64,000 bases of DNA from an uncultured Thermoanaerobaculia bacterium (GTDB lineage: Bacteria > Acidobacteriota > Thermoanaerobaculia > Thermoanaerobaculales > Sulfomarinibacteraceae): contig CAZXMW010000005.1 in assembly GCA_964641415.1 (NCBI GenBank), positions 14,760 to 78,759 on the forward strand, in the 5' to 3' direction. A program made the translations under genes and the position numbers. Positions 1 through 56,407 of this stretch are shown here, piece after piece (position 1 is the first letter of the stretch; each line of letters opens with the position of its first letter). The notes beneath the pieces were generated by a model. The model saw only the letters and a program-made list of their open reading frames with translations. It searched no databases and was not told where the DNA came from.

Positions 1-33
1 AACGCAGAGGCGCAGAGGCGCAGAGGCGCAGAG
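1..33. repeat. Left arm of a perfect 33-nt inverted repeat made of tandem octamer cgcagagg (about 4 units). It may be truncated by the window edge.
   Basis: Sequence 1-33, aacgcagaggcgcagaggcgcagaggcgcagag, is the exact reverse complement of 557-589. Confidence 0.9.
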
Positions 34-125
34 CCATCGCACCATCGCAAGTCGAAGCCATCGCAGCCGTCGCACCGTCGCAGTTCATCGCAGTGGTGCG
101 GAGGAGCGGAGTCATCGCAGTTCGT
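34..125. repeat. Array of about 7 degenerate catcgca/cgtcgca motifs
   Basis: ccatcgca, ccatcgca, ccatcgca, ccgtcgca, ccgtcgca, tcatcgca and tcatcgca can be read directly. The complementary motif tgcgatg recurs at 590-610 and at 16355-16362. Confidence 0.8.
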
Positions 126-146
126 TGGTGAGGGTAAGGTGTTGAG

Positions 147-551
147 ATGAGAGGCGACGAGGAGCTGAATCTGCCCGAGAATCGGGTGAGTAGGGTGGTT
201 CTTGATGCGGCGATCGAGGTCCATCGGGAGCTCGGCGGTCCAGGGCTCCTGGAGAGCGTCTACGAGGAGGCTCTCGCGTTCGAGCTTGCCGAACGAGGGC
301 TCGTTGTCAAACGCCAGCTCGCGGTTCCGATCATGTATAAAGGGCATCGCATCAGCTCCGATCTTCGTCTCGACCTGCTGGTGGAGAACCTCGTGGTGGT
401 CGAGTGCAAGTCAGTCTCGGAGTACAACCCGATCTTCGATGCGCAAGCTCTGACCTACCTTCGGATGCTCGGGCTTCGCCTGGCTCTCGTGATCAACTTC
501 GGTGCGAGGCGCGTGGTGGATGGAATCCACCGCGTGGTGAACGATCTGTGA
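147..551 (+). CDS. GxxExxY family protein (PD-(D/E)XK nuclease superfamily)
   Basis: The 134-aa ORF carries the signature GPGLLESVYEEAL (GxxExxY) and a downstream D...E.K-type core (DLLVENLVVVECKS). The size is typical of the family. Confidence 0.85.
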   Translation: MRGDEELNLPENRVSRVVLDAAIEVHRELGGPGLLESVYEEALAFELAERGLVVKRQLAVPIMYKGHRISSDLRLDLLVENLVVVECKSVSEYNPIFDAQALTYLRMLGLRLALVINFGARRVVDGIHRVVNDL

Positions 552-556
552 TCCTC

Positions 557-589
557 CTCTGCGCCTCTGCGCCTCTGCGCCTCTGCGTT
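557..589. repeat. Right arm of the perfect 33-nt inverted repeat
   Basis: ctctgcgcctctgcgcctctgcgcctctgcgtt is the reverse complement of 1-33. It starts 5 nt after the GxxExxY stop codon. Confidence 0.9.
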
Positions 590-610
590 AACTGCGATGA
601 TTGCGATGGG
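590..610. repeat. Two tgcgatg motifs (complement of the catcgca array)
   Basis: The sequence aactgcgatgattgcgatggg lies immediately before the next start codon. Confidence 0.7.
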
Positions 611-5642: not shown

Positions 5643-6257
5643 ATGGCAGATGCCGATCGCACGATCACCATCGATGGCGTGACCCTCGCGCTGCAGGTGA
5701 CCCGAAAGCAGGTCAAGAACATCAACGCCCGGTTGGTCGGAGGAGAGCTTCGGATCAGCGCGCCGCCCGCGGTGCGGGATACCGAGCTCGAGCCGATCGT
5801 CCGCGAGCTCGGACGGCGGTTGCTCCGGCGCGAACGCGCGCACAACGTCAACGACGCGCACGACGCGCTGGCATTGGCGCAGCGCGTGGCGCTCCGGTTC
5901 GCCGATCCGCCGCGAATCGAGGCGGCGCGTTTCTCCACCAACCAGCGGGCGCGGTGGGGGAGCTACAGCGTCCGAACCCGGACCGTGCACCTCAATGCAG
6001 CTCTGCGCACCATGCCGCCATGGGTGCTCGAGGCGGTCGTCGCGCACGAGCTCGCGCACTCGTTTCACCCCGATCACTCGCCGGCGTTCTGGGCCCTGCT
6101 GCGCGGGATCTGCCCCGAGACCGACCGGGCACGCGCTTTCCTGGAGGGCGTCAGCTGGCTCGCCGGAAGCTGGAATCGGCTGCCGCCGCCGGAGCGCACC
6201 CAGCTCGGAGCATGGACCGAAGGTGGAGCAGACACGGCCGTGAACCCTGCGGGTTAG
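5643..6257 (+). CDS. YgjP-like (DUF45/M48 family) zinc metallopeptidase
   Basis: It contains the HEXXH motif HELAH followed by HSPAFW. The family-typical N-terminus reads ...VTRKQVKNINARL.... Confidence 0.7.
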   Translation: MADADRTITIDGVTLALQVTRKQVKNINARLVGGELRISAPPAVRDTELEPIVRELGRRLLRRERAHNVNDAHDALALAQRVALRFADPPRIEAARFSTNQRARWGSYSVRTRTVHLNAALRTMPPWVLEAVVAHELAHSFHPDHSPAFWALLRGICPETDRARAFLEGVSWLAGSWNRLPPPERTQLGAWTEGGADTAVNPAG

Positions 6258-11489: not shown

Positions 11490-12341
11490 ATGAGCCGAGC
11501 AGCGCGTGTTCTGACGATCACTGTCTTGGTGTGCGGGCCGATCATGGCCCAGGATGGCCGGTTGGGCGACGTCGCAGGGTCGATCACTCTCGATCCGAAT
11601 GCGGTGGTCGAGAAGCAGGGTGTGGTCGAGGATCCCCGAACCGCGCTGAAGGCCGACAGCGATCTGCTCGGTGAGATTCTTGCCGGGTGCTCGGCCCGGG
11701 CGGACCGGCTTGACGAGCTCATCAACGAGGCGCGTGAGACCTTTCTGACCGAGGACAGCGACATCCCGGTTCGCCTGCGCGACTCCTCGCTCGAGCTCGA
11801 GACGGCGATCCGGGAGATCGAGCTTCTGCGCCTGACCGGGATCTTGAGCGAGCCGCTGACGGCCGCCCGCCGTGCGGCCGAGGTCTGTGACGAAACGACA
11901 CGAAGCGTGCGAACCGAGCTCGCTCGCGGCGGAATCGCCTTCCGTGAAGCCAATGAAAAGGTCGCTCGCTGCCGCGGCCTGCTCGACGATGCCGCGGCCC
12001 TGCTCGCGGACGCCACGACCACCGACGAAGCGGCGGGCAACGGCGCTGCCGAAGAGGAGCAGGAATCGCCCCGGACGGCGGCAACGTCGCCCGATGACGT
12101 CATCGCGGAGCTCTGTGAGGCCCGGCGGTCCGAAGGCGAGGCGGCGGTCGAGGACTGTCGGGGGCGGCAGTACCGTGCCCTGGCGGCCATCGAGTCGCGC
12201 ACCGCAGAGTACGAGATGCTCGACGAGCTGAGCTTCGCGGGTGTGCGCAGTCTGTGCGCGACCGTCCACCTGCGGGACTTCGTCGCCCGCAACGAGTGCG
12301 AGATCGAGAAGATGACGGCGCTTCGGCTCGAGCTCGAGTGA
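11490..12341 (+). CDS. Hypothetical secreted, Cys-containing helical protein
   Basis: The signal peptide is MSRAARVLTITVLVCGPIMAQ. An aggaggg RBS lies 6-8 nt upstream of ATG 11490. The upstream ATG 11451 is less likely. Confidence 0.5.
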   Translation: MSRAARVLTITVLVCGPIMAQDGRLGDVAGSITLDPNAVVEKQGVVEDPRTALKADSDLLGEILAGCSARADRLDELINEARETFLTEDSDIPVRLRDSSLELETAIREIELLRLTGILSEPLTAARRAAEVCDETTRSVRTELARGGIAFREANEKVARCRGLLDDAAALLADATTTDEAAGNGAAEEEQESPRTAATSPDDVIAELCEARRSEGEAAVEDCRGRQYRALAAIESRTAEYEMLDELSFAGVRSLCATVHLRDFVARNECEIEKMTALRLELE

Positions 12342-12352
12342 CGGTTGGTCGG

Positions 12353-14167
12353 TCAGGGTTGACCGGGCGCTTGGCGGCGAACCGGCGGGACGACGATCTC
12401 GGTCACAGCTCGTCGCAGATCGTCATCCGCGATGAGCTCGAGCAGAGCCGGGTTGGTCCGGCACACCCTCGCCAGATGGACGATCGCCTCGCCGCGTAGA
12501 TTGCGTGCGTCGAGCCGGTTGCCGGTGTCGCGGCGTCTGCGATCCTGGTCGGCCAGCGCGAGTCCGAGACCGAACTCGGCTTCCTCGTGGGGCCACAGCC
12601 CCATGGCTCGACGGAATGCGGTCTCGGCGCCGACGCCGTCGCCGCGCGCCATCCTGGCCTGACCGACCATTCGCCACAGCCACGGTTGGGCGCTCGCCAG
12701 CGGCTCGATCCGCGCCAGGATCTGACCTTCCACGGCGGCTGCGTGGGTCGCCCGGCGGCTCGGCTCGAGCCGCTCGATGGTGGCGAGCGCGTGCCCCAGG
12801 CCACCCCGCCAGAGATTGACGATCAGCTTGTGAAGCTGCCAGTAGACGCCGGCCAGTACCAGTGCGATGGCAACCGCGACGCCGACCCGGCGGCGCCAGG
12901 CAGCCGGCTCGACGACGATCTCCCGGCCGCCGGACAGCAGGCGGCCGAGCACGAGGACCGTCGGCACGAGCCCGACCGCGAGATGGGTCGGGAAGTGAAA
13001 CAGGAGGAAGGGCAGAAATGCGGCCACCGCAAGAGCGGGCAGCGGGTCGCCGCGCGGTTTGGCCCGGAGCAGCGCGGCCGCCAAGGCGGCCATCCAGAGC
13101 AGTCCCAGAACGCCGAGCTCGGCGGTCATTTGCAGCGGGTCGCAGTGGGCGAACCGGAAGTGGGTGGCGAACTCGGCGCGGTTGCCCACCGCGCCGGTTC
13201 GGTCCAAGAAGGCGAGTCGGCTCGGGTAGAAGGAGTGGGTGAAGTTGGCGGCGCCGGTTCCGATCAGCGGTCGGCCGCGGACCATCTCGCCGGCGGCGGT
13301 CCAGCCGTCGCTGCGGGCCGACAGCAGGAAGTACCAGTCACCCATCTCGAGCCTTCTGATCTGCCGCCGAATCCGGTCGTCGAGCCCGGTGGCGAGCCCG
13401 ACGGCGATCAGCGCCAGGACGGTGGCTGCGGCCACCACCCACAGCCGGCGCGATCGTCGCTGAACCAGCCAGAGACCCCAGACCAACACGACCGCAACCA
13501 GCGCAGTCATGGTCTGGGACACGACCGCCGCTCCGGTCAGCAGCACGGCGAGGAAGTGTCGGAAGCGCCTCTCGCCGGGTGAGCACTCCGGTGCGGCCAG
13601 CACCAGCGGGAGCAGCAGAACGGCAGCCGCCGCGAGGTCGGCCGGGTTACCGGTGAGCCCGGTGAGCGCGAGGCGCCCGGTGGGTCCGCTGAGTCCGATC
13701 GCGAACACCGCAGCGCCGGCCGCCTGGGCGAACATCACCAGTGCCGACACTGCGGCGCCGATAGCCGCAGCGTCGACCAGCCGGCGGTGCTCCGGGCCCC
13801 CGGTGGTTGCGAGCCAGAGCGCTCCGGACACCCAGATCGCCGACGACAAGGCGGCGTCGAGGGCGAGGCGCGGACTGCCGCTCCACAGCATTGACAGCGC
13901 CTGCAGGACGGGCAGGGCGAGCAGCACAAGGGCAGCGGGCGACCAGCGCAGCGTCAGCCGCCCACGGGCGAAGCCGGCGGCGGCGCTGAGCCCGACGACG
14001 GCCAGCAGCGCGGACAGCGCGACAACTTCCTTGGGCGCTCGAAACGGACTCGCCGCACCGGGCAGCACCACGATCTCGACGAGCAGAAAGGCCGCCGCGA
14101 GCAGCCACACGCTTTTCCTCACGGTCGCCGGTGTCGGCGGGGGAGTCGCTCGCTGTTTCCGTGCCAC
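12353..14167 (-). CDS. O-antigen ligase (Wzy_C)-like polytopic membrane protein with C-terminal TPR-like region
   Basis: There are about 10 TM helices and the motif GTGAANFTH...FAHCDPLQMTAELG. The start is uncertain: GTG 14167 or GTG 14122. The annotated 1180-aa ORF extends antisense over the POT gene and is not credible upstream. Confidence 0.6.
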   Translation of the reverse strand: MARKQRATPPPTPATVRKSVWLLAAAFLLVEIVVLPGAASPFRAPKEVVALSALLAVVGLSAAAGFARGRLTLRWSPAALVLLALPVLQALSMLWSGSPRLALDAALSSAIWVSGALWLATTGGPEHRRLVDAAAIGAAVSALVMFAQAAGAAVFAIGLSGPTGRLALTGLTGNPADLAAAAVLLLPLVLAAPECSPGERRFRHFLAVLLTGAAVVSQTMTALVAVVLVWGLWLVQRRSRRLWVVAAATVLALIAVGLATGLDDRIRRQIRRLEMGDWYFLLSARSDGWTAAGEMVRGRPLIGTGAANFTHSFYPSRLAFLDRTGAVGNRAEFATHFRFAHCDPLQMTAELGVLGLLWMAALAAALLRAKPRGDPLPALAVAAFLPFLLFHFPTHLAVGLVPTVLVLGRLLSGGREIVVEPAAWRRRVGVAVAIALVLAGVYWQLHKLIVNLWRGGLGHALATIERLEPSRRATHAAAVEGQILARIEPLASAQPWLWRMVGQARMARGDGVGAETAFRRAMGLWPHEEAEFGLGLALADQDRRRRDTGNRLDARNLRGEAIVHLARVCRTNPALLELIADDDLRRAVTEIVVPPVRRQAPGQP

Positions 14168-14332: not shown

Positions 14333-16288
14333 ATGGCGTTCGGACACCCGAAGGGACTCTTCCCGCTGTTCTTCACCGAGATGTGGGAGCGACTGGCCTT
14401 CTACACCATGGTCGGCATCCTGCTCCTGTACACCATCGATGCGGAACGCGGGGGCCTCGGGTTGCCGCGGGCGCAGGGCAACGAGATCTACGGGCTGTAC
14501 CTGGCGTTCGTCTACTTCACGCCGTTTCTCGGCGGCATGATCGCCGACCGCTACCTCGGGTACCGTCGATCGGTGGCGATCGGCGGGCTGCTCATGGCGA
14601 GCGGACTGTTCATGATGGGCATCCCGGGCTACACCTTCTTCGTCATGGGCCTGATCGGCCTCATCGTCGGCAACGGCTTCTTCAAGCCCAACATCTCGGT
14701 GATGGTCGGCAACCTGTACGAGCCCGGTGACCCGAAGCGCGACTCGGGCTTCAACATCTTCTACATGGGGATCAACGTCGGCGCTCTCGCGGCGACGCTC
14801 ATCGTCGCCCCGATCGTGCGGAACTACTTCGGCTGGCTGTGGACCTTCCGTGCCGCCGGCATCGGCGTGCTGTTCGCGGTGGTGCTGCTGGCGATCTTCT
14901 GGCGGTCCCTGGCCAATGCCGACCGGCAGCCCGAGCGGAGCGCAGGCGACACCTCGATGGGCGAGATCTTCGGCAAGATCCTGGCGCCGGCGTTCATCGT
15001 CGGGTTCATCGGCTACTTCGCCGCCAAGCAGTTCGAGATGCAGCTGGTCCGGCCGTCGGACTTCGGTTTCCTGGTCGGGATGATCCCGGTGGTCATCTTC
15101 TTCGTCCGGCTCGGGCTCACCGCCAATGAGGAGGAGCGCCCCGGGCTGCTCGCCCTGCTGCCGATCTTCGTCGCCGGCGGCGCCTTCTTCATGATCCTCC
15201 ACCTCAACGGCAGCGCCATGACCCAGTGGGCGCGCGACTACACCGACCGCAGGCCGGGGGTCGCCGCCAGCGTCCCGCTGATCGGGCAGATTCAGCAGGA
15301 TGCCCTGCCCAGCTACTACCTCAACGCCGGTCAGGACGTGCCCCGGCCCCATCCCGACAGCCTGCTCGTGGTGGCCTCGTCGGAGATCGCCAACCAGTTC
15401 GGTCAGAGCCGGATGCGGGAGAGCGCGGTGGCGACCCTGGACGGCTTCGCCGGCATCTCCGTCGTGCGGGTCGGACCGAAGGGCTCGGGTCAGGACCTCG
15501 ACTCCGCCTGGCTGGACCGGGCGGTCAAGGTCTACCCCGACGACGAGGTCAATGTCCGGACCGAAACCGGTTCCCACGGCGAGAAAATCACCACCGTCGC
15601 GCTCGGTGACGGTGCGGTGCCGACCGGCCAGGTCGTGCTGCTCAGGGAGCTCTCGGACGGCGTCCGGATCCCGGTGTTCGTCGTCGACGAGGCGACCAGG
15701 GATGCCATCTACGGTGGCTTCATCGCGCGCTACGGCCGCCCGCCCGACTACTTGCCTCCAGGTCGCTTCCTGCAGGTCGTCAACGCCGAGGTCTACCAGA
15801 GCTGGAACCCGTTCTGGGTCATCTTCCTGACCCCGGTCGTGGTCTGGTTCTTCGGCTGGAGGCTCAAGCTCGGCAAGCCGGTACCGACCGCTCACAAGCT
15901 GCTCTACGGCATGCTGCTGACCACCGCCGCGCTGCTCATCATGGCGGTCGCGGGGTCCCAGACGGACGCCGGTGCGGTCAAGGTGGCCGGGTTGTGGATG
16001 GCGATCTTCTACCTGGTGATCACCCTCGGCGAGCTCTGTCTGTCACCGATCGGGCTGTCGTTGGTGACCAAGCTCGCGCCGCCCCGGCTGGTCGGTCTCG
16101 CGATGGGCGGATGGTTCCTGGCGACCTCGATCGGCAACAAGTTCTCGGGCTTTCTGGGTGCGGTCCAGAATCACATGGAGCCCATGTGGTTCTTCGTATT
16201 CCTGGCCGGGCTGGCGGCCGTGGTGGCGACCTTCATCTTTCTCGTGCTGCCCAGGCTCGACCGCGCAATCAAGAAGTACGGAGCATAG
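14333..16288 (+). CDS. Proton-dependent oligopeptide transporter (POT/PTR2 family)
   Basis: The N-terminus is GHPKGLFPLFFTEMWERLAFYTMVGILLLY, followed by FTPFLGGMIADRYLG (PTR2 signatures). An aaggag RBS lies 7 nt before the ATG. Confidence 0.85.
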   Translation: MAFGHPKGLFPLFFTEMWERLAFYTMVGILLLYTIDAERGGLGLPRAQGNEIYGLYLAFVYFTPFLGGMIADRYLGYRRSVAIGGLLMASGLFMMGIPGYTFFVMGLIGLIVGNGFFKPNISVMVGNLYEPGDPKRDSGFNIFYMGINVGALAATLIVAPIVRNYFGWLWTFRAAGIGVLFAVVLLAIFWRSLANADRQPERSAGDTSMGEIFGKILAPAFIVGFIGYFAAKQFEMQLVRPSDFGFLVGMIPVVIFFVRLGLTANEEERPGLLALLPIFVAGGAFFMILHLNGSAMTQWARDYTDRRPGVAASVPLIGQIQQDALPSYYLNAGQDVPRPHPDSLLVVASSEIANQFGQSRMRESAVATLDGFAGISVVRVGPKGSGQDLDSAWLDRAVKVYPDDEVNVRTETGSHGEKITTVALGDGAVPTGQVVLLRELSDGVRIPVFVVDEATRDAIYGGFIARYGRPPDYLPPGRFLQVVNAEVYQSWNPFWVIFLTPVVVWFFGWRLKLGKPVPTAHKLLYGMLLTTAALLIMAVAGSQTDAGAVKVAGLWMAIFYLVITLGELCLSPIGLSLVTKLAPPRLVGLAMGGWFLATSIGNKFSGFLGAVQNHMEPMWFFVFLAGLAAVVATFIFLVLPRLDRAIKKYGA

Positions 16289-16421
16289 TGTTGAGTTTTG
16301 AGTGTTTAGTTTTTAGTTCCATCGCACATGAGTCCTTTCGCGGTGGAATCACGCTGCGATGGAAACTCAAAACTAAACACTAAAAACTGAGAACTGAGAA
16401 CTGAGAACTGAGAACTGAGAA
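16289..16421. repeat. AT-rich imperfect inverted repeat with a ccatcgca/tgcgatgg clamp and (ctgagaa)x5 heptamer array. It fills the whole convergent intergenic gap.
   Basis: The left arm is gttgagttttgagtgtttagtttttagtt-ccatcgca and the 28-nt centre follows. The right arm is tgcgatgg-aaactcaaaactaaacactaaaaa plus five ctgagaa units (16387-16421). Confidence 0.85.
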
Positions 16422-16422
16422 C

Positions 16423-18363
16423 TCATTGGCTCTTGCCCTTGAGGCGGTCGAGCGCCCGGTGGAGGCGCCACGCCTTGGTGCGCTCCATGGCCCCGATCAG
16501 CGCACCGAGCCGCTCGATTTCGGCGTGCAACCGCTCGATCTCGGACGCTCGTTCGTCGCACGCGATCTGCAGGGCCGTCTCCCGCTCGCCGAGACTCTCG
16601 ACCTCCGTTCGAAGCTCCCCGATCAGCTGTTGGCGCTCGCCGATGGCGGCGTTGGCCGCGGCGAGGTCGGCGCCGTGCCGCCTGACCTCGGCGGTCAGGC
16701 GTTCGCGTTCGGCGCGCAATGCCTCGACCTCGCCGTTGAGGCGGTGAGAGGCGTCGGCCGCCGCCGCGTCGGCAGCGCGTACCTTCGCGATGTCGCGCCG
16801 CGCGGCGTTCGCCGCCTCGCCGGCGGTCACCGCCTCGGCGCGCAGGGTGTCGACGACCCGGGCGACGACCTCGGGCCCGATCAGGTCGGCGTGACGGCCG
16901 ATGACCGCCGCCTTGAGGCGAAGGAAGTCCGCCCGACGGCGGGGGCTCTCGCCGAGCACATGGTGAGCAGCGCCCCGAAAGTGCCGGTACTCGGCGGTGA
17001 CCCGAGGCAGGTGGTGGAACGGAACCAGCGCGGCGAGCCGGATCAGGAAGTCCCAGTCCTCGAAGAACTCGAGCTCGGGGTCGAAGGGTCCCGCCCGGCG
17101 CGCCAAGGACAGGTCCATGATCAGGGTGTTGAACGGAATGTAGTTGTCGACGAGGAGCAGCTCGGGGTCGAAGTCTCTGCTGTACGGAAGTCGTCGTTCG
17201 ACCTCGCTCCAGCCGCCCTCCGGGCCGAGCTCGTAGATGCCGACGGCGGCGTCGGTGTAGGCGACGCGGACGTCCGCCGCGGCCACCAGACCGACCAGGG
17301 TGGCGATGTGCTCGGGCTCGACGAGATCGTCGTCGTCGAGAAAGCAGAGATAGGCCCCGGTGGCCGCGTCGACCCCGGCGTTGGCGGCGGCGGCCCGGCC
17401 CAGGGTGCGGCCCGTTTCGACCCGGACGACCGGGAAGGGAAAGTCGGCCGGCACCGTGGGCTCGGCGCCGCCGTCGTTGACCAGGACGATCTCAAGCCGG
17501 CGGTAGCTGCTGGCGGAGAGACTTGCCAGAGCCTCGGCGAGCAGGTCCGGGCGGTCCTTGGTTCGGACGACGACGCTGACGGTCGGACCCGCGGTGTTTG
17601 CCGCGAGCTCGACCATTGCCCCGAGCCGACGTGCCAGCTCGGTCGGGCCCTGGGTCACGATGTCGTTCAGGCCGATCTCGCAGTAGGCCTCGGCGGCGAC
17701 GGTGCCGGTCGGCAGCGACAGTGCCCGGAATCGGCGCATCCCGAGGGCAGCCTCTCGGTAGTTGTGCAGCTCGAGTTGGCTCGCGTGGGCCTCGATGGCG
17801 GCTGCCAGCCGGTCGAGCTCGTCGCTGACGTCGATCAGCAGGTTGGGATAGCTCGGGTGGTTGACCTCATAGAGCAGAATCCGGCACCCGGCCATGATCT
17901 CGTCGAGCTCGGTGCCGCCGCGCAGGGAGGTCAGGGCGAGATGGAGGGCAGTGAAGGCCGCCCGGTGATCGGTGGTGATCTCGCAGGGCGACACCGACAG
18001 AATGAGGTCAGGACGAACGTCGCGGATCGCTCCGGAGGCCGTTTCGGCGGCGGTGTCCACCCAGGCGGCGAGCTCACCGTCAGGGATCGACAGGACCTCC
18101 ATCCGGGAGATGCCCAGGACGCCGAGTCCCTGTCGGGCCTCGGCGCGGCGGCGCGCCCCATAACCCTCTCGGTCGGTGGTGACCTCGCTGCCCCCCGACG
18201 AATCGGTCAGGTAGACGATGCGGATGTCGGCGCCCCGGTCGGCGAGCTGGACGAGCAGACCGCCGCAGCCGAGGACCTCGTCGTCGAAGTGTGGGGCGAG
18301 CACCAGCACGCGTCGGGCGCCGACCGTCGTCGTGGTCGTCGGGGGCATCGGGTCGAGCTGCAT
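16423..18363 (-). CDS. Fusion protein: PIG-L/LmbE-type deacetylase, GT2 glycosyltransferase and a C-terminal coiled coil
   Basis: The PIG-L part reads VLVLAPHFDDEVLGCGG. The GT2 part reads VSVVVRTKDRPDLL...VLVNDGG ... FLDDDD. A heptad-rich tail is present. ATG 18363 precedes the PIG-L domain. Confidence 0.8.
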   Translation of the reverse strand: MQLDPMPPTTTTTVGARRVLVLAPHFDDEVLGCGGLLVQLADRGADIRIVYLTDSSGGSEVTTDREGYGARRRAEARQGLGVLGISRMEVLSIPDGELAAWVDTAAETASGAIRDVRPDLILSVSPCEITTDHRAAFTALHLALTSLRGGTELDEIMAGCRILLYEVNHPSYPNLLIDVSDELDRLAAAIEAHASQLELHNYREAALGMRRFRALSLPTGTVAAEAYCEIGLNDIVTQGPTELARRLGAMVELAANTAGPTVSVVVRTKDRPDLLAEALASLSASSYRRLEIVLVNDGGAEPTVPADFPFPVVRVETGRTLGRAAAANAGVDAATGAYLCFLDDDDLVEPEHIATLVGLVAAADVRVAYTDAAVGIYELGPEGGWSEVERRLPYSRDFDPELLLVDNYIPFNTLIMDLSLARRAGPFDPELEFFEDWDFLIRLAALVPFHHLPRVTAEYRHFRGAAHHVLGESPRRRADFLRLKAAVIGRHADLIGPEVVARVVDTLRAEAVTAGEAANAARRDIAKVRAADAAAADASHRLNGEVEALRAERERLTAEVRRHGADLAAANAAIGERQQLIGELRTEVESLGERETALQIACDERASEIERLHAEIERLGALIGAMERTKAWRLHRALDRLKGKSQ

Positions 18364-18418
18364 CGTGGTTGAGATAGTACACCGCTTCGACGACCAACAC
18401 GCGGGGGAACGCCGGTCA

Positions 18419-18579
18419 CCTGAGGTGAACGGTTCTGCCGGATGAGATGTGCCGAGATCGTGATGGGCTGATGGTTGCCGAAAACGGAGGCATACCCTTC
18501 GACGTGTCGAGTCTTTTCGCAGCCATCCAGGGCGCAGGAAATGTGGTGCAGATCGCCGGTGAGAATCGCTCATCTCAGG
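18419..18579 (+). repeat. Copy A of a dispersed, roughly 160-nt repeat family with 10-nt terminal inverted repeats
   Basis: It aligns end to end with 31191-31350, with about 30 mismatches and one 1-nt indel by eye. The termini are cctgaggtga and tcatctcagg. Confidence 0.85.
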
Positions 18580-35086: not shown

Positions 35087-35142
35087 CTCTGAAAACGAGA
35101 GACGCTCGGGCCCGTCAGCCCGAGCGTCTCTCGTTTTCAGAG
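35087..35142. terminator. Bidirectional hairpin terminator, 25-bp perfect stem
   Basis: The stem is ctctgaaaacgagagacgctcgggc / gcccgagcgtctctcgttttcagag with a 6-nt loop. It lies between convergent genes. Confidence 0.75.
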
Positions 35143-49296: not shown

Positions 49297-50162
49297 CCGC
49301 CTCCACCGGGCGACCGCGCAACGCCGAATCCGCTACCCTGCGCCGATACCTGGAAGACATCTCCAGATATCCGATGCTGAGCCACGACGAGGAGGTCGAG
49401 CTCGCTCGTCGTGTCAAGGCCGGCGATCACGAGGCCGTTCGGCGGCTTGTCGAGGCCAACCTGCGCTTCGTGGTTGCCTACGCCAAGCGCTACCGGACAC
49501 CCAACGTGCCGTTTCTCGATCTCATCCACGAGGGGAACCTCGGCCTGATCCAGGCGGCCAAGAAGTACGACCCGTTCGGCGAGGGCCACGACGTCAAGTT
49601 CATCACCTATGCCGTTTGGTGGATCCGCCAGGCGATCCTGCACGCGCTGGCGGAGCATGCAGGATCGTTCCGCCTGCCCCAGAAGCAGGCGAACAACCTG
49701 TACCGGCTCGAAAGGGTCCGGTCACTGCTCCAGGAGCGACATGGACGGGCGCCGACCGACGTCGAGCTCGCCGACGAGCTCGATCTGTCGGTGGACGACG
49801 TGCAGGTGCTGACCCAGGCGTCCCAGTCTTCGCTATCCCTCAACGAGCCGGTCGACGTCGACGGCAATTCCGAACTCGGCGATCTTCTCGAGCAGACGAC
49901 GCTCCCGGACACCGACGACCGGCTCGTTCAGGAGTCGTTCCGGGTCGCGTTGGCAGATGCCCTCGGCGAGCTGCCCGACCGGGAGCGACGCGTGCTCGAG
50001 CTGCGGTTCGGTCTCCTGGACGACCAACCCAAAACCCTGAGGGAGATCGGCGAGATCCTCGATTTGTCGCGGGAGCGCGTGCGGCAGATCGAGAGCCGCG
50101 CCCTCAACCGACTGCGATGCTCACACACCACCCAGTCCCTCTCCGGATACCTCAGTGCATGA
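49293..50162 (+). CDS. Sigma-70 family RNA polymerase sigma factor (regions 2, 3 and 4 present; group 2/3-like)
   Basis: Region 2 reads NLRFVVAYAKRY...DLIHEGNLGLIQAAKKYD...FITYAVWWIRQAI. Region 4 reads LREIGEILDLSRERVRQIESRAL. An ATGA overlap links it to hspR. Confidence 0.85.
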   Translation: MTASTGRPRNAESATLRRYLEDISRYPMLSHDEEVELARRVKAGDHEAVRRLVEANLRFVVAYAKRYRTPNVPFLDLIHEGNLGLIQAAKKYDPFGEGHDVKFITYAVWWIRQAILHALAEHAGSFRLPQKQANNLYRLERVRSLLQERHGRAPTDVELADELDLSVDDVQVLTQASQSSLSLNEPVDVDGNSELGDLLEQTTLPDTDDRLVQESFRVALADALGELPDRERRVLELRFGLLDDQPKTLREIGEILDLSRERVRQIESRALNRLRCSHTTQSLSGYLSA

Positions 50163-50210
50163 TGACCGCAGCTGTGCGATGTCATTGATCATTCAAAATT
50201 CATCATTGGC

Positions 50211-54889: not shown

Positions 54890-56407
54890 TCACTCTCCGA
54901 AGGTTTCGACGTGCCGCTCGTGCGCTCGTTCGAGCCACGGGCGCCAGGTTCGGGACGCGCGGAGCAGCTCGCTCACCTTGACCGGTCGCAGCCGGCGACG
55001 GGTGAGCTCCTGGACGAATCGCGGCAGGTCGGACCACGGCGGCTCCTCGCGCTCGGTCGCCAGGTGCATCAGGACGATGCCTCCTTCGAGCCGTGGAAAC
55101 GCGAGCAGCCGGTCGACCATCCGGCGCGAGTTTCGGTACAGGCGCGAGTGCTCGTCGGCGATCCAGTCAAGGGAGTCCAGCGACGCGCCTTCGAGCGAGC
55201 TCCAGCGGACGTGCAGGTACCCGAGTTCCATGCCCCACTGACGCAGCTCGGAGTTCTCTTCGCCGTACGGTGCGCGCCACAGCGGCACCATGGCACGACC
55301 GGTGGCCTTGCGAAAGGCGATCTCTGTCTGTCGCAGCTGGTCATGCAGCATGGCCCGCGTCACACCAGGGAGAGTGCGGTGGCGGCGGTCGTCCGCCCAG
55401 CTCGTCAGGTGCGGGTGTGAGTAGGTGTGACTGCCGACCTCATGGCCGGCGAGCACGGCCTGACGGACCAGAGTCGGGTACCGCTCGACGAAACGGCCGG
55501 TGACGAAGAGCGTAATCTGCAAATCAAGACGTTGCAGCAGATCGAGAAGCTCCGCGGTGCCGTTGGAGGACCCGTCGCCGTCGAAGGTGACGGCGATTCG
55601 AGGTCCGGCGTCGGTGACCAGGTGGAGCACCGGCGGCGACGGACCGCGCGACCTCGACCGGGTCGCCGCACCGTCGCGAATCGCCGTCGGCAGCCGATCT
55701 CGGGCAGGAGGCGCCGTGGCGGTCGGTCGTCGGGTCTCTGTCGGCGTCGTTGTCGGCGTCTCTGTCGGCGTCATTGTCGGTGTCTCGGTTGCGGTTGCAC
55801 TGGCGGTCTGCGTCGGGGACGAGGTTGCGGTTGCCGTCGGAGTCGAGGTCGCCGTCGGTGTTTCGGTCGGCAGAGGCGGGATCGTCTCCGGGGCCTCGGC
55901 GAACGAGGCGATGGCGAGCTCGGCGCCGGGATCGATCTCGAGATCGTCGACGAGCGCTTCGCCCCGACGATCCAGGGTCACGATCCTCACCGGACGCCCA
56001 TCGGCGATCAGAACCGCTTGAGAGTCCGGAGTGCCCCGGACGCGGACTGTGGGCCGGTCGCTGCCGCGCACCAGCTCGGCGACGGCGTGCGGCCCTTCGG
56101 CGAGTCCGGGTGCGTGCCGAATCTCGACCATCCAGCCGGCGAGCACGACACCGATCCAGGAGCTCGCGGCCAGCAGGCTGACGGCGACCACGATGGTTGC
56201 CCAAGGCCGGGGAACGCGTCGTCGGAGCCCGGTCCGACCGGTCGCGGCGAGGCGTGCTCCGAGGTCATGGAGTCGGCATCTCCAACCGCAGTAGGCGTAA
56301 CCGCTCCTCAGCTCGACGCAGCGGTCGCACAGCCACTTTCCGCAGCCGCGACACCGGACCTCGGCCTCGCGCGACGGGTGGTTCGCACAGCGCGAGATCA
56401 CCCGCAT
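54890..56407 (-). CDS. Polysaccharide deacetylase (NodB homology) with N-terminal zinc ribbon, TM helix and Pro/Thr-rich linker
   Basis: The zinc ribbon is C..H...E..C..CG...C..C. The linker is TPTATSTPTATATSSPTQTASATATETPTMTPTETPTTTPTE. The NodB part reads VTFDGDG...TLFVTG...GHEVGSHTYSHPHL. Confidence 0.8.
   Translation of the reverse strand: MRVISRCANHPSREAEVRCRGCGKWLCDRCVELRSGYAYCGWRCRLHDLGARLAATGRTGLRRRVPRPWATIVVAVSLLAASSWIGVVLAGWMVEIRHAPGLAEGPHAVAELVRGSDRPTVRVRGTPDSQAVLIADGRPVRIVTLDRRGEALVDDLEIDPGAELAIASFAEAPETIPPLPTETPTATSTPTATATSSPTQTASATATETPTMTPTETPTTTPTETRRPTATAPPARDRLPTAIRDGAATRSRSRGPSPPVLHLVTDAGPRIAVTFDGDGSSNGTAELLDLLQRLDLQITLFVTGRFVERYPTLVRQAVLAGHEVGSHTYSHPHLTSWADDRRHRTLPGVTRAMLHDQLRQTEIAFRKATGRAMVPLWRAPYGEENSELRQWGMELGYLHVRWSSLEGASLDSLDWIADEHSRLYRNSRRMVDRLLAFPRLEGGIVLMHLATEREEPPWSDLPRFVQELTRRRLRPVKVSELLRASRTWRPWLERAHERHVETFGE

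Follow-up and report, generated by a model that had tools for sequence, protein, structure and literature searches.

In a 64-kb stretch of DNA from an uncultured acidobacterium of the class Thermoanaerobaculia (hereafter the window), the whole gap between the gene of a POT family peptide transporter and a convergent gene encoding a fused PIG-L deacetylase and family-2 glycosyltransferase (PIG-L/GT2) consists of one hairpin element of 134 nt (16289–16422). It is built from inverted arrays of AT-rich heptamers and an inner G+C-rich clamp that surrounds a variable centre. To judge from comparisons with related genomes, the element is old and constrained and looks functional, and it is a member of a little-studied class of intergenic repeat hairpins and does not look like the remains of a lost gene. 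The reading that we favour, with a probability of about 0.5, is that it represents a stem-loop of the intergenic heptamer-repeat class which lacks an open reading frame (ORF), acts as RNA in the manner of 23S rRNA intervening sequences (IVS) or repetitive extragenic palindromes (REP), and probably provides a transcript processing or stability signal, a function that we infer. Coordinates are those of the window unless a locus is named; loci fetched from other genomes are designated L with a number.

Architecture and conservation of the element

The element and the two genes that converge on it comprise the following parts, the arrays being delineated with Tandem Repeats Finder (TRF).

14333–16288, plus strand: POT/PTR2 peptide transporter gene, 651 amino acids (Pfam PTR2, NCBIfam TIGR00924; translation checked)
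16289–16318, no strand: left arm, T/G-rich heptamer array TGTTGAG TTTTGAG TGTTTAG TTTTTAG TT (TRF, inverted repeat)
16319–16326, plus strand: left clamp CCATCGCA, G+C-rich inner base of the hairpin (exact match)
16327–16354, no strand: 28-nt centre (loop region), differing between orthologues
16355–16362, plus strand: right clamp TGCGATGG, reverse complement of the left clamp (exact match; identical in L084)
16363–16388, no strand: right arm, A/C-rich heptamer array AAACTCA AAACTAA ACACTAA AAACT (TRF), complementary to the left arm
16385–16423, no strand: outer perfect array (AACTGAG)x5.6 = (GAACTGA)n (TRF, 100% matches), with no partner in the left arm
16423–18573, minus strand: PIG-L deacetylase/family-2 glycosyltransferase fusion gene (Pfam PIG-L and Glycos_transf_2), converging on the POT gene

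The stop codon of the POT gene (TAG, ending at 16288) directly adjoins the element, the arrays beginning 0 nt downstream of it, and at the other end the outer array reaches the stop codon of the PIG-L/GT2 gene (16423–16425, minus strand) and overlaps it by one base. TRF assigns period 7 to both arms, with units AGTTTTG (x4.6, 16287–16318) and AAACTAA (x3.7, 16363–16388), and an inverted-repeat search finds the segments 16287–16318 and 16364–16395 to be 84% complementary. In L084, the left arm retains TTCTCAG, the complement of the outer-array unit. These results bear out the first-pass annotation of the gap as a single element with 7-nt-periodic, AT-rich inverted arms, an exact clamp round a 28-nt centre and perfect repeats touching the stop codon, except that its length had been put at 133 bp. 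The element is also AT-rich within a GC-rich genome, as had been claimed, since its G+C content is only 0.39, the mean of the window being 0.669. A database entry (P0001) is 100% identical to the POT protein over its 651 amino acids.

RNA from either strand is predicted to fold as a single hairpin, with energies of -51.8 kcal/mol (z -6.8) and -53.2 kcal/mol (z -7.7), and an RNA fold as good was obtained in none of 200 shuffles; the DNA fold reaches -31.7 kcal/mol (z -7.1). Only one position in the arms allows G-T pairing, and analysis of G-U pairs is uninformative as to which strand's RNA has been selected. When the window was searched with Rfam 15, the element gave no match at the gathering score, its sub-threshold matches being to microRNA-precursor hairpins, and only a tRNA passed. 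The tRNA gene in question (1205–1276; RF00005, 74 bits) lies shortly after the gene that follows a cassette at 1–610, which is described below. Rfam finds no rRNA in the window, and the element lies between two protein-coding genes, not in helix 9, 25 or 45 of 23S rRNA.

The gap between the POT and PIG-L genes was compared in eight lineages, consisting of the window and seven further lineages that were found via POT homologues and their contigs. POT relatives at 78–88% identity are named Thermoanaerobaculales or Holophagae, and a metagenome scan with the POT protein yielded, among the matches listed, mostly distant transporters at 27–67% identity. In all eight lineages the PIG-L/GT2 neighbour is the same, and in none of them does the site carry a gene. 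The gaps of the seven relatives, with the amino acid identity of their POT proteins to that of the window, are as follows.

L084, POT 84%, gap 109 nt: (AGTTTTG)n, ACATCGCA, unrelated 28 nt, TGCGATGG, (AACTAAA)n
L168, POT 82%, gap 121 nt: (GAATTTT)n, perfect G+C-rich inner hairpin CCCCCACCC...GGGTGGGGG, then TTCAAAA/CTGAGAA units
L169, POT 78%, gap 149 nt: (GAGTTCT)n, unrelated centre of ~60 nt, (GAACTAA)x5.7
L165, POT 88%, gap 92 nt: G+C-rich period-7 version
L166/L167, POT 87%, gap 92 nt: without arrays
L170, POT 86%, gap 62 nt: without arrays
L082, POT 86%, gap 15 nt: without the element

The left clamp of the window is thus kept as ACATCGCA in L084. Each of the four array-bearing gaps, including that of the window, folds as a single hairpin (z -5.0 for L084, -7.6 for L168 and -4.25 for L169), and the arms can pair in several registers offset by 7 nt. 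When the POT proteins are arranged in a neighbour-joining tree, the earliest branches are L169 and L168, both of which bear arrays, so that the simplest history is one of an ancestral element with later losses. These comparisons indicate that the common ancestor of several Thermoanaerobaculales-like lineages already carried the element here, that the element was passed on vertically, and that some lineages have lost it or converted it to G+C-rich sequence.

At the four-fold degenerate sites of the POT gene, 92% of which are G/C, the window and L084 are 50% identical, against 42% expected at random from composition. The arms plus clamp, with a G+C content of 34–38%, are 84% (left) and 87% (right) identical between the same two sequences; for the window and L169 the corresponding figures are 85% and 87%. 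Since the arms and clamp have stayed similar although neutral sites are saturated, they have been kept by selection or by homogenisation, which is the opposite of what a decaying remnant would exhibit. The centres of the orthologues do not align, and the centre is therefore free to vary. In addition, a double change that preserves pairing separates the window (AGTTTTG/CAAAACT) from L168 (AATTTTG/CAAAATT).

A class of repeat hairpins with and without genes

Arrays of this kind are abundant in L169, where AT-rich heptamer arrays occupy 8 of ~11 gaps longer than 100 nt. The 14 arrays within 22 kb have diverse units, are usually paired round a centre and start 0–17 nt past a stop codon, and arrays with similar units recur within the locus at 6130, 7979 and 12053. 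Near-identical units are found in distant phyla, including AGTTTTG/AGTGTTG in L033, a deltaproteobacterial metagenome-assembled genome (MAG), and TAACTGA/AAACTAA units positioned six bases before a start codon in L013, a Pirellula MAG.

The class includes gene-bearing forms, and the period of the arrays goes with the gene family. Periods near GxxExxY genes were taken from a periodicity measure, a strict CGCA-core pattern having missed most of the degenerate arrays. The fetched DNA contains six 23S_rRNA_IVP genes, which encode the four-helix-bundle IVS protein S23p. Each has period-7 arrays on at least one side, and the eight arrays detected are all of period 7. Three of the genes (L032, L040 and L079) lie between clearly complementary arrays, for example (GGGGACT)n in L040 (Geomonas), and another, in L168, sits one gap away from the POT–PIG-L site. 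Loci with the gene between or beside heptamer arrays, whose units are diverse, are L040 11247–11713, L079 275–816, L032 6223–6755, L111 19557–19967 and L168 14805–15377. Arrays near GxxExxY genes have period 8 in 153 of 172 cases, period 9 in 16 and period 7 in one. Among 80 GxxExxY loci from many phyla there are also ~45 gene-less hairpins with arms of tandem 7-, 8- or 9-mers, and many of the GxxExxY genes are flanked on both sides by octamer arrays in inverted orientation (NCGCAGAG/NCGCAAAG type), which frequently start with TTAACGCA.

The GxxExxY genes themselves, at 56–72% identity, occur in MAGs labelled Planctomycetota, Chloroflexota, Verrucomicrobiota, Acidobacteriota, deltaproteobacteria and others (L001–L080; for example L004, L022, L026, L038 and L064), with layouts of either arm-gene-arm or hairpin-gene-hairpin. 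Downstream of the gene in L016 (10428–11150), a unit of ~45 nt, (CTCTGCGT)x3 + TTAAAACCCCACAACCCACAAC, is present in about fifteen tandem copies. A sequence search of solved structures gave no relative of the GxxExxY protein, and a literature search found no paper on repeats flanking GxxExxY genes.

The window carries a cassette of this kind, which serves here as a comparison element.

1–610, plus strand: GxxExxY cassette (TIGR04256/PDDEXK_3), with the gene at 147–551
Arrays of the cassette: (CGCAGAGG)x4 at 3–33; CCATCGCA-type octamers at 34–120; (CCTCTGCG)x4 at 556–587; TGCGATG x2 at 593–609

Its arms (CGCAGAGG/CCTCTGCG) have period 8, and not 7, in TRF. The window has 10 copies of CCATCGCA where 3.6 are expected, and six of the ten lie in the hairpin element and the cassette together. 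The earlier claim that the clamp is common to the two is correct, CCATCGCA being the tandem unit of the cassette and also of its syntenic relative L001, and it carries a CGCA core that is seen by eye in most of the octamer arrays flanking GxxExxY genes across many phyla. The clamp thus amounts to a single octamer of the GxxExxY type in each arm, while the arrays themselves are of period 7, so that the window hairpin combines the period of the 23S_rRNA_IVP arrays with a GxxExxY-type clamp. L001 is a G+C-rich contig of 1785 bp labelled as a Flavobacteriaceae MAG; it is syntenic with positions 1–700 of the window, with the same cassette, downstream gene and CCATCGCA repeats, and it is probably a misbinned contig from a relative of the organism to which the window belongs.

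The clamp, in its form CATCGCA/TGCGATG, directly abuts the heptamer arrays both in the window element and in its L084 orthologue, and at an independent site in L084 (14020) the motif again marks the inner edge of a heptamer array, (GTGAGTA)n-TCATCGCA. A candidate half-element is present elsewhere in the window.

50163–50210, no strand: 48-nt gap with TGCGATG (50175) immediately followed by TCATTGA TCATTCA AAATTCA TCATTGG, (TCATTNA)x4

This gap follows an ORF ending at 50162 and is read as convergent from the ORF list alone. In L168 and L169 the clamp position is often taken by a run of G or C such as GGGTGGGTGGG, and the boundary motif is therefore lineage-specific. Many heptamer arrays of these two genomes have such a run at one edge, inner or outer, for example at 12035–12052, 14071–14095 and 20515–20535 in L169. 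In the 2.3 Mb of fetched DNA, close inverted pairs of the form CATCGCA-N(5–60)-TGCGATG are limited to the two orthologous elements, with 0.67 expected. Among viral contigs there were at least 120 matches to the clamp pattern and none was flanked by arrays, so that the pattern alone is not diagnostic.

Other short-period repeats were observed in the window. Two long direct hexamer arrays (ACGGNN: GCCACG, CGGATA and others), at 2535–2616 and 2842–2995, follow a DUF937 gene and enclose a centre of 226 nt (2617–2841) which has no Rfam match. An 85-nt part of this centre (2682–2765) is ~80% identical, in reversed orientation, to part of a heptamer-flanked centre at a different genomic site in L084 (14109–14192) and contains the inverted repeat TTGAC(C)ATTGTG...CACAATGT(T)CAA; this segment may be a dispersed module, a small RNA or a promoter. 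Degenerate tandem repeats of 6, 12 and 24 nt (GTCGGN...) lie in a G+C-rich stretch at 55722–55869.

Heptamer repeats have been described in several bacterial groups, and those of cyanobacteria go by the name of short tandemly repeated repetitive (STRR) sequences. The GGGAATC repeats of Xanthomonas are almost always intergenic, start near the end of the upstream ORF and, in 70–75 cases, consist of two opposite-strand arrays able to form a stem-loop (PMC4692102). Their positions are conserved between related species while their length and sequence vary, and the GGGGA(C/T)T repeats of Nostoc rarely form inverted pairs (PMC4692102). Heptamer repeats are over-represented in bacteria, with their function unknown (PMC4692102, PMC4679880). 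The window arrays resemble the inverted pairs of Xanthomonas in having at least three 7-nt copies, in being intergenic and near an ORF end, and in forming a stem-loop. They differ in their units (AGTTTTG, AAACTAA and AACTGAG), which are AT-rich, of the form AGTTNTN, and not G-rich like GGGAATC, so that no quadruplex is expected; in belonging to an acidobacterium of ~67% G+C and enclosing a G+C-rich clamp and a variable centre; and in the constraint which is demonstrated here against saturated neutral sites.

Direct TAACTGA repeats occur in Beggiatoaceae, cyanobacteria and Bacteroidetes, mainly as arrays just upstream of start codons, with only one inverted case, in the BOGUAY genome, and close relatives can have shorter gaps without them (PMC4679880). 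Binding proteins of the S1, Csp and CsrA types have been proposed for these repeats, and a single heptamer is reported to be bound by each CspB molecule (PMC4679880). The heptamer period and intergenic position are shared with the window element, whose outer unit GAACTGA matches at six of seven bases, whereas the window arrays form an inverted pair between two gene ends. For the TTTTGAA/TTCAAAA repeats of Nostoc, regulatory effects have been reported (bioRxiv 10.1101/2022.06.06.494920), and the same unit is also present in the L168 gap.

The IVS of 23S rRNA are stem-loops with complementary ends which are cut by RNase III and have a G+C content below that of the host; some carry an S23p/IVP ORF, and the elements are regarded as selfish (PMC4990558). 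Complementary ends that form a long stem and a low G+C content relative to the host are equally features of the window element. Both classes exist with and without an ORF, and 23S_rRNA_IVP genes likewise have period-7 arrays, but the window element lies outside an rRNA gene and lacks an ORF. ORF-less IVS exist in Salmonella and Campylobacter.

REP sequences, bacterial interspersed mosaic elements (BIME) and the REPIN-RAYT systems (REP doublets with REP-associated tyrosine transposases) of proteobacteria are extragenic palindromes that often lie between convergent genes or in operons, and they act as mRNA stabilisers and not as terminators. In REPIN-RAYT systems, a gene is flanked by the same palindromes that lie scattered elsewhere without a gene, and the hairpin-GxxExxY-hairpin layout of L022, L038, L040 and others is similar. 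In the repeat hairpins, however, the arms are tandem repeats, and their units vary from site to site and do not form one high-copy family; no RAYT gene turned up, although no search aimed at RAYT was made. Relative to the GxxExxY cassette, the window element shares the inverted short-period arrays round a centre and the clamp unit CCATCGCA with its CGCA core, but it lacks an ORF of the TIGR04256/PF13366 family, its arms are of period 7 and not 8, and its centre is unrelated. Integron attC sites were considered and rejected: by eye the arms lacked the core sites (RYYYAAC/GTTRRRY) and no integrase gene was noticed nearby, no search having been made for either.

Proposed function and rival explanations

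In the mechanism that we favour, the heptamer arrays AGTTNTN on the left and their complement NANAACT on the right would pair, with the 8-bp CCATCGCA/TGCGATGG clamp closing the inner end of the stem. Both convergent transcripts would enter the element, and each would fold into a stem of ~40–45 bp whose 5' arm is rich in U and whose 3' arm is rich in A, a polarity that would give long double-stranded RNA instead of intrinsic termination. The stem could then act as a processing or stability signal, either as a substrate of an RNase III-type enzyme, as for rRNA IVS, or as a block to 3' exonucleases, as for REP, and it would insulate the two mRNAs from each other. The gene-bearing relatives of this architecture have 23S-IVS-protein genes between heptamer arrays and GxxExxY genes between octamer arrays; the window copy is empty, with no sign that it was ever otherwise.

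Several observations weigh against this reading. The RNA mechanism is, at every step, something that we infer, and the DNA strands fold equally well, so that a role at the DNA level, as a cruciform or a protein-binding array, may apply. In L169 the same G-A mismatch is present in every heptamer, and the arms are kept alike in sequence and not just in pairing; pairing alone cannot therefore explain the conservation, which argues for recognition of the heptamers or for slippage-driven homogenisation. Array pairs that are non-complementary, (GGAATTC)n with (AACTCAG)n, also occur in L169, and pairing is thus not universal in the class. Moreover, the G+C-rich version in L165 and the lack of the element in three lineages imply that it is dispensable.

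The conserved sequence of the arrays and the recurrent mismatch in L169 would be accommodated if the heptamers were themselves the functional units, providing a site every 7 nt for a single-strand binder of the cold-shock-domain or S1-like type, or for a DNA-binding protein, with the hairpin secondary or modulated by the protein. The near-identical units in L033 and L013, the single base that separates GAACTGA from TAACTGA with its proposed binders, and the regulatory effects reported for the Nostoc repeats all point the same way. We nevertheless consider this unlikely, because the binder is only putative, the units differ widely between sites of one genome, and the exact inverted clamp, together with inverted pairs in same-strand gaps, points to selected pairing. 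It is similarly doubtful that the element is a selfish one, resembling a miniature inverted-repeat transposable element (MITE) or an IVS and lacking a host function, with its similarity between lineages due to concerted evolution with other genomic copies. Its patchy presence among relatives, the recurrence of one unit family at several sites in L169, the lineage-specific boundary motif (G-runs in L168 and L169 where the window and L084 have CATCGCA) and the low-G+C, reputedly selfish IVS are in keeping with such an origin. Yet no target-site duplication is visible between filled and empty sites, there is no near-identical second copy within the 64-kb window and elsewhere only matches at the level of the unit, four lineages, the two earliest-branching ones among them, have the element at this same site, and AT-rich sequence persists against neutral sites that are 92% G/C.

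The position of the element between convergent genes, touching both stop codons, and its very stable hairpin on both strands would suit a bidirectional intrinsic (Rho-independent) terminator serving both genes, an explanation that we find quite unlikely. On both strands the inner stem has the U-rich arm before it and the A-rich arm after it, with no U-tract trailing the hairpin, and a scan for consensus terminators found no terminator-like site. The 8-bp clamp encloses 28 nt, which makes for a loop of that size or larger, and the rest of the stem is AT-rich, unlike a short G+C-rich stem with a loop of 3–8 nt. Elements of the same build occur, furthermore, inside an operon of the relatives, between the E1-beta and E2 genes of the 2-oxoacid dehydrogenase operon (L168 21287–21415 and L169 20396–20514), as inverted heptamer arrays of the ATTGCAA/AATTTGC type, so that the element type is not tied to transcript ends; in L082 and L084 this gap is only 36–50 nt and without the element. 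A palindrome with the conventional order of A-tract, stem and T-tract does exist elsewhere in the window. Its two halves match perfectly over 25 bp and enclose a 6-nt loop (CTCTGAAAACGAGAGACGCTCGGGC/complement, 35087–35142); it lies in a gap read as convergent from the ORF list, with GAAAAC-stem-GTTTTC and A4/T4 flanks, the terminator scan misses it too, and the fetched DNA contains no other copy. The fallback of the first-pass annotation, an idiosyncratic bidirectional terminator, fails, as the element is shared by relatives, the polarity is wrong and the scan is negative. Highly unlikely, finally, is the emptied or decayed GxxExxY cassette that had been envisaged at the outset, in which the gene between the clamps was deleted and the arms and a remnant centre were left. 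The identity of the clamp with the tandem unit of the cassette and L001, and the gene-less hairpins of cassette-type octamers that adjoin many GxxExxY genes, speak for kinship. The centre, which had been thought to resemble the 3' end of the GxxExxY gene, does not align locally with the gene or cassette above chance, 166 of 2000 shuffles and 13% of other window segments scoring as well. None of the eight lineages has a gene at the site, 169 of the 172 arrays near GxxExxY genes have a period of 8 or 9 whereas the arms here have period 7, and the arms and clamp are conserved instead of decaying. The idea of the emptied cassette is thus partly right on kinship, in shared motif and architecture, and wrong on history. 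Versions of the layout with and without a gene do coexist in the class.

Wider meaning of the repeat hairpins

The favoured reading of the element as an RNA signal could be embedded in a broader scheme, which we put forward as speculation with the odds against it. The inverted short-period arrays and their lineage-specific clamp would act in cis as the ends of a cassette system, hitherto undescribed, that spans many phyla and in which small genes move into and out of the loops, 23S-IVS-protein genes with heptamer arms and genes for the GxxExxY PD-(D/E)XK nuclease with octamer arms, and gene-less hairpins would be docking sites co-opted as RNA signals. If this were true, the link between gene family and period would reflect the footprint of a protein or enzyme that makes or recognises the arms.

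To what was known of heptamer repeats, the present case adds evidence of constraint, since AT-rich heptamer arms and a clamp persist where neutral sites are saturated and 92% G/C. It also adds a dissected architecture of array, clamp and free centre, in which the clamp motif varies by lineage, and it links repeat hairpins to the gene cassettes from which the rRNA intervening sequences take their name, with period 7 for the IVS-protein genes and period 8 for the GxxExxY genes. If the RNA-processing reading is true, post-transcriptional punctuation by such hairpins would be widespread in phyla that do not readily lend themselves to experiments.

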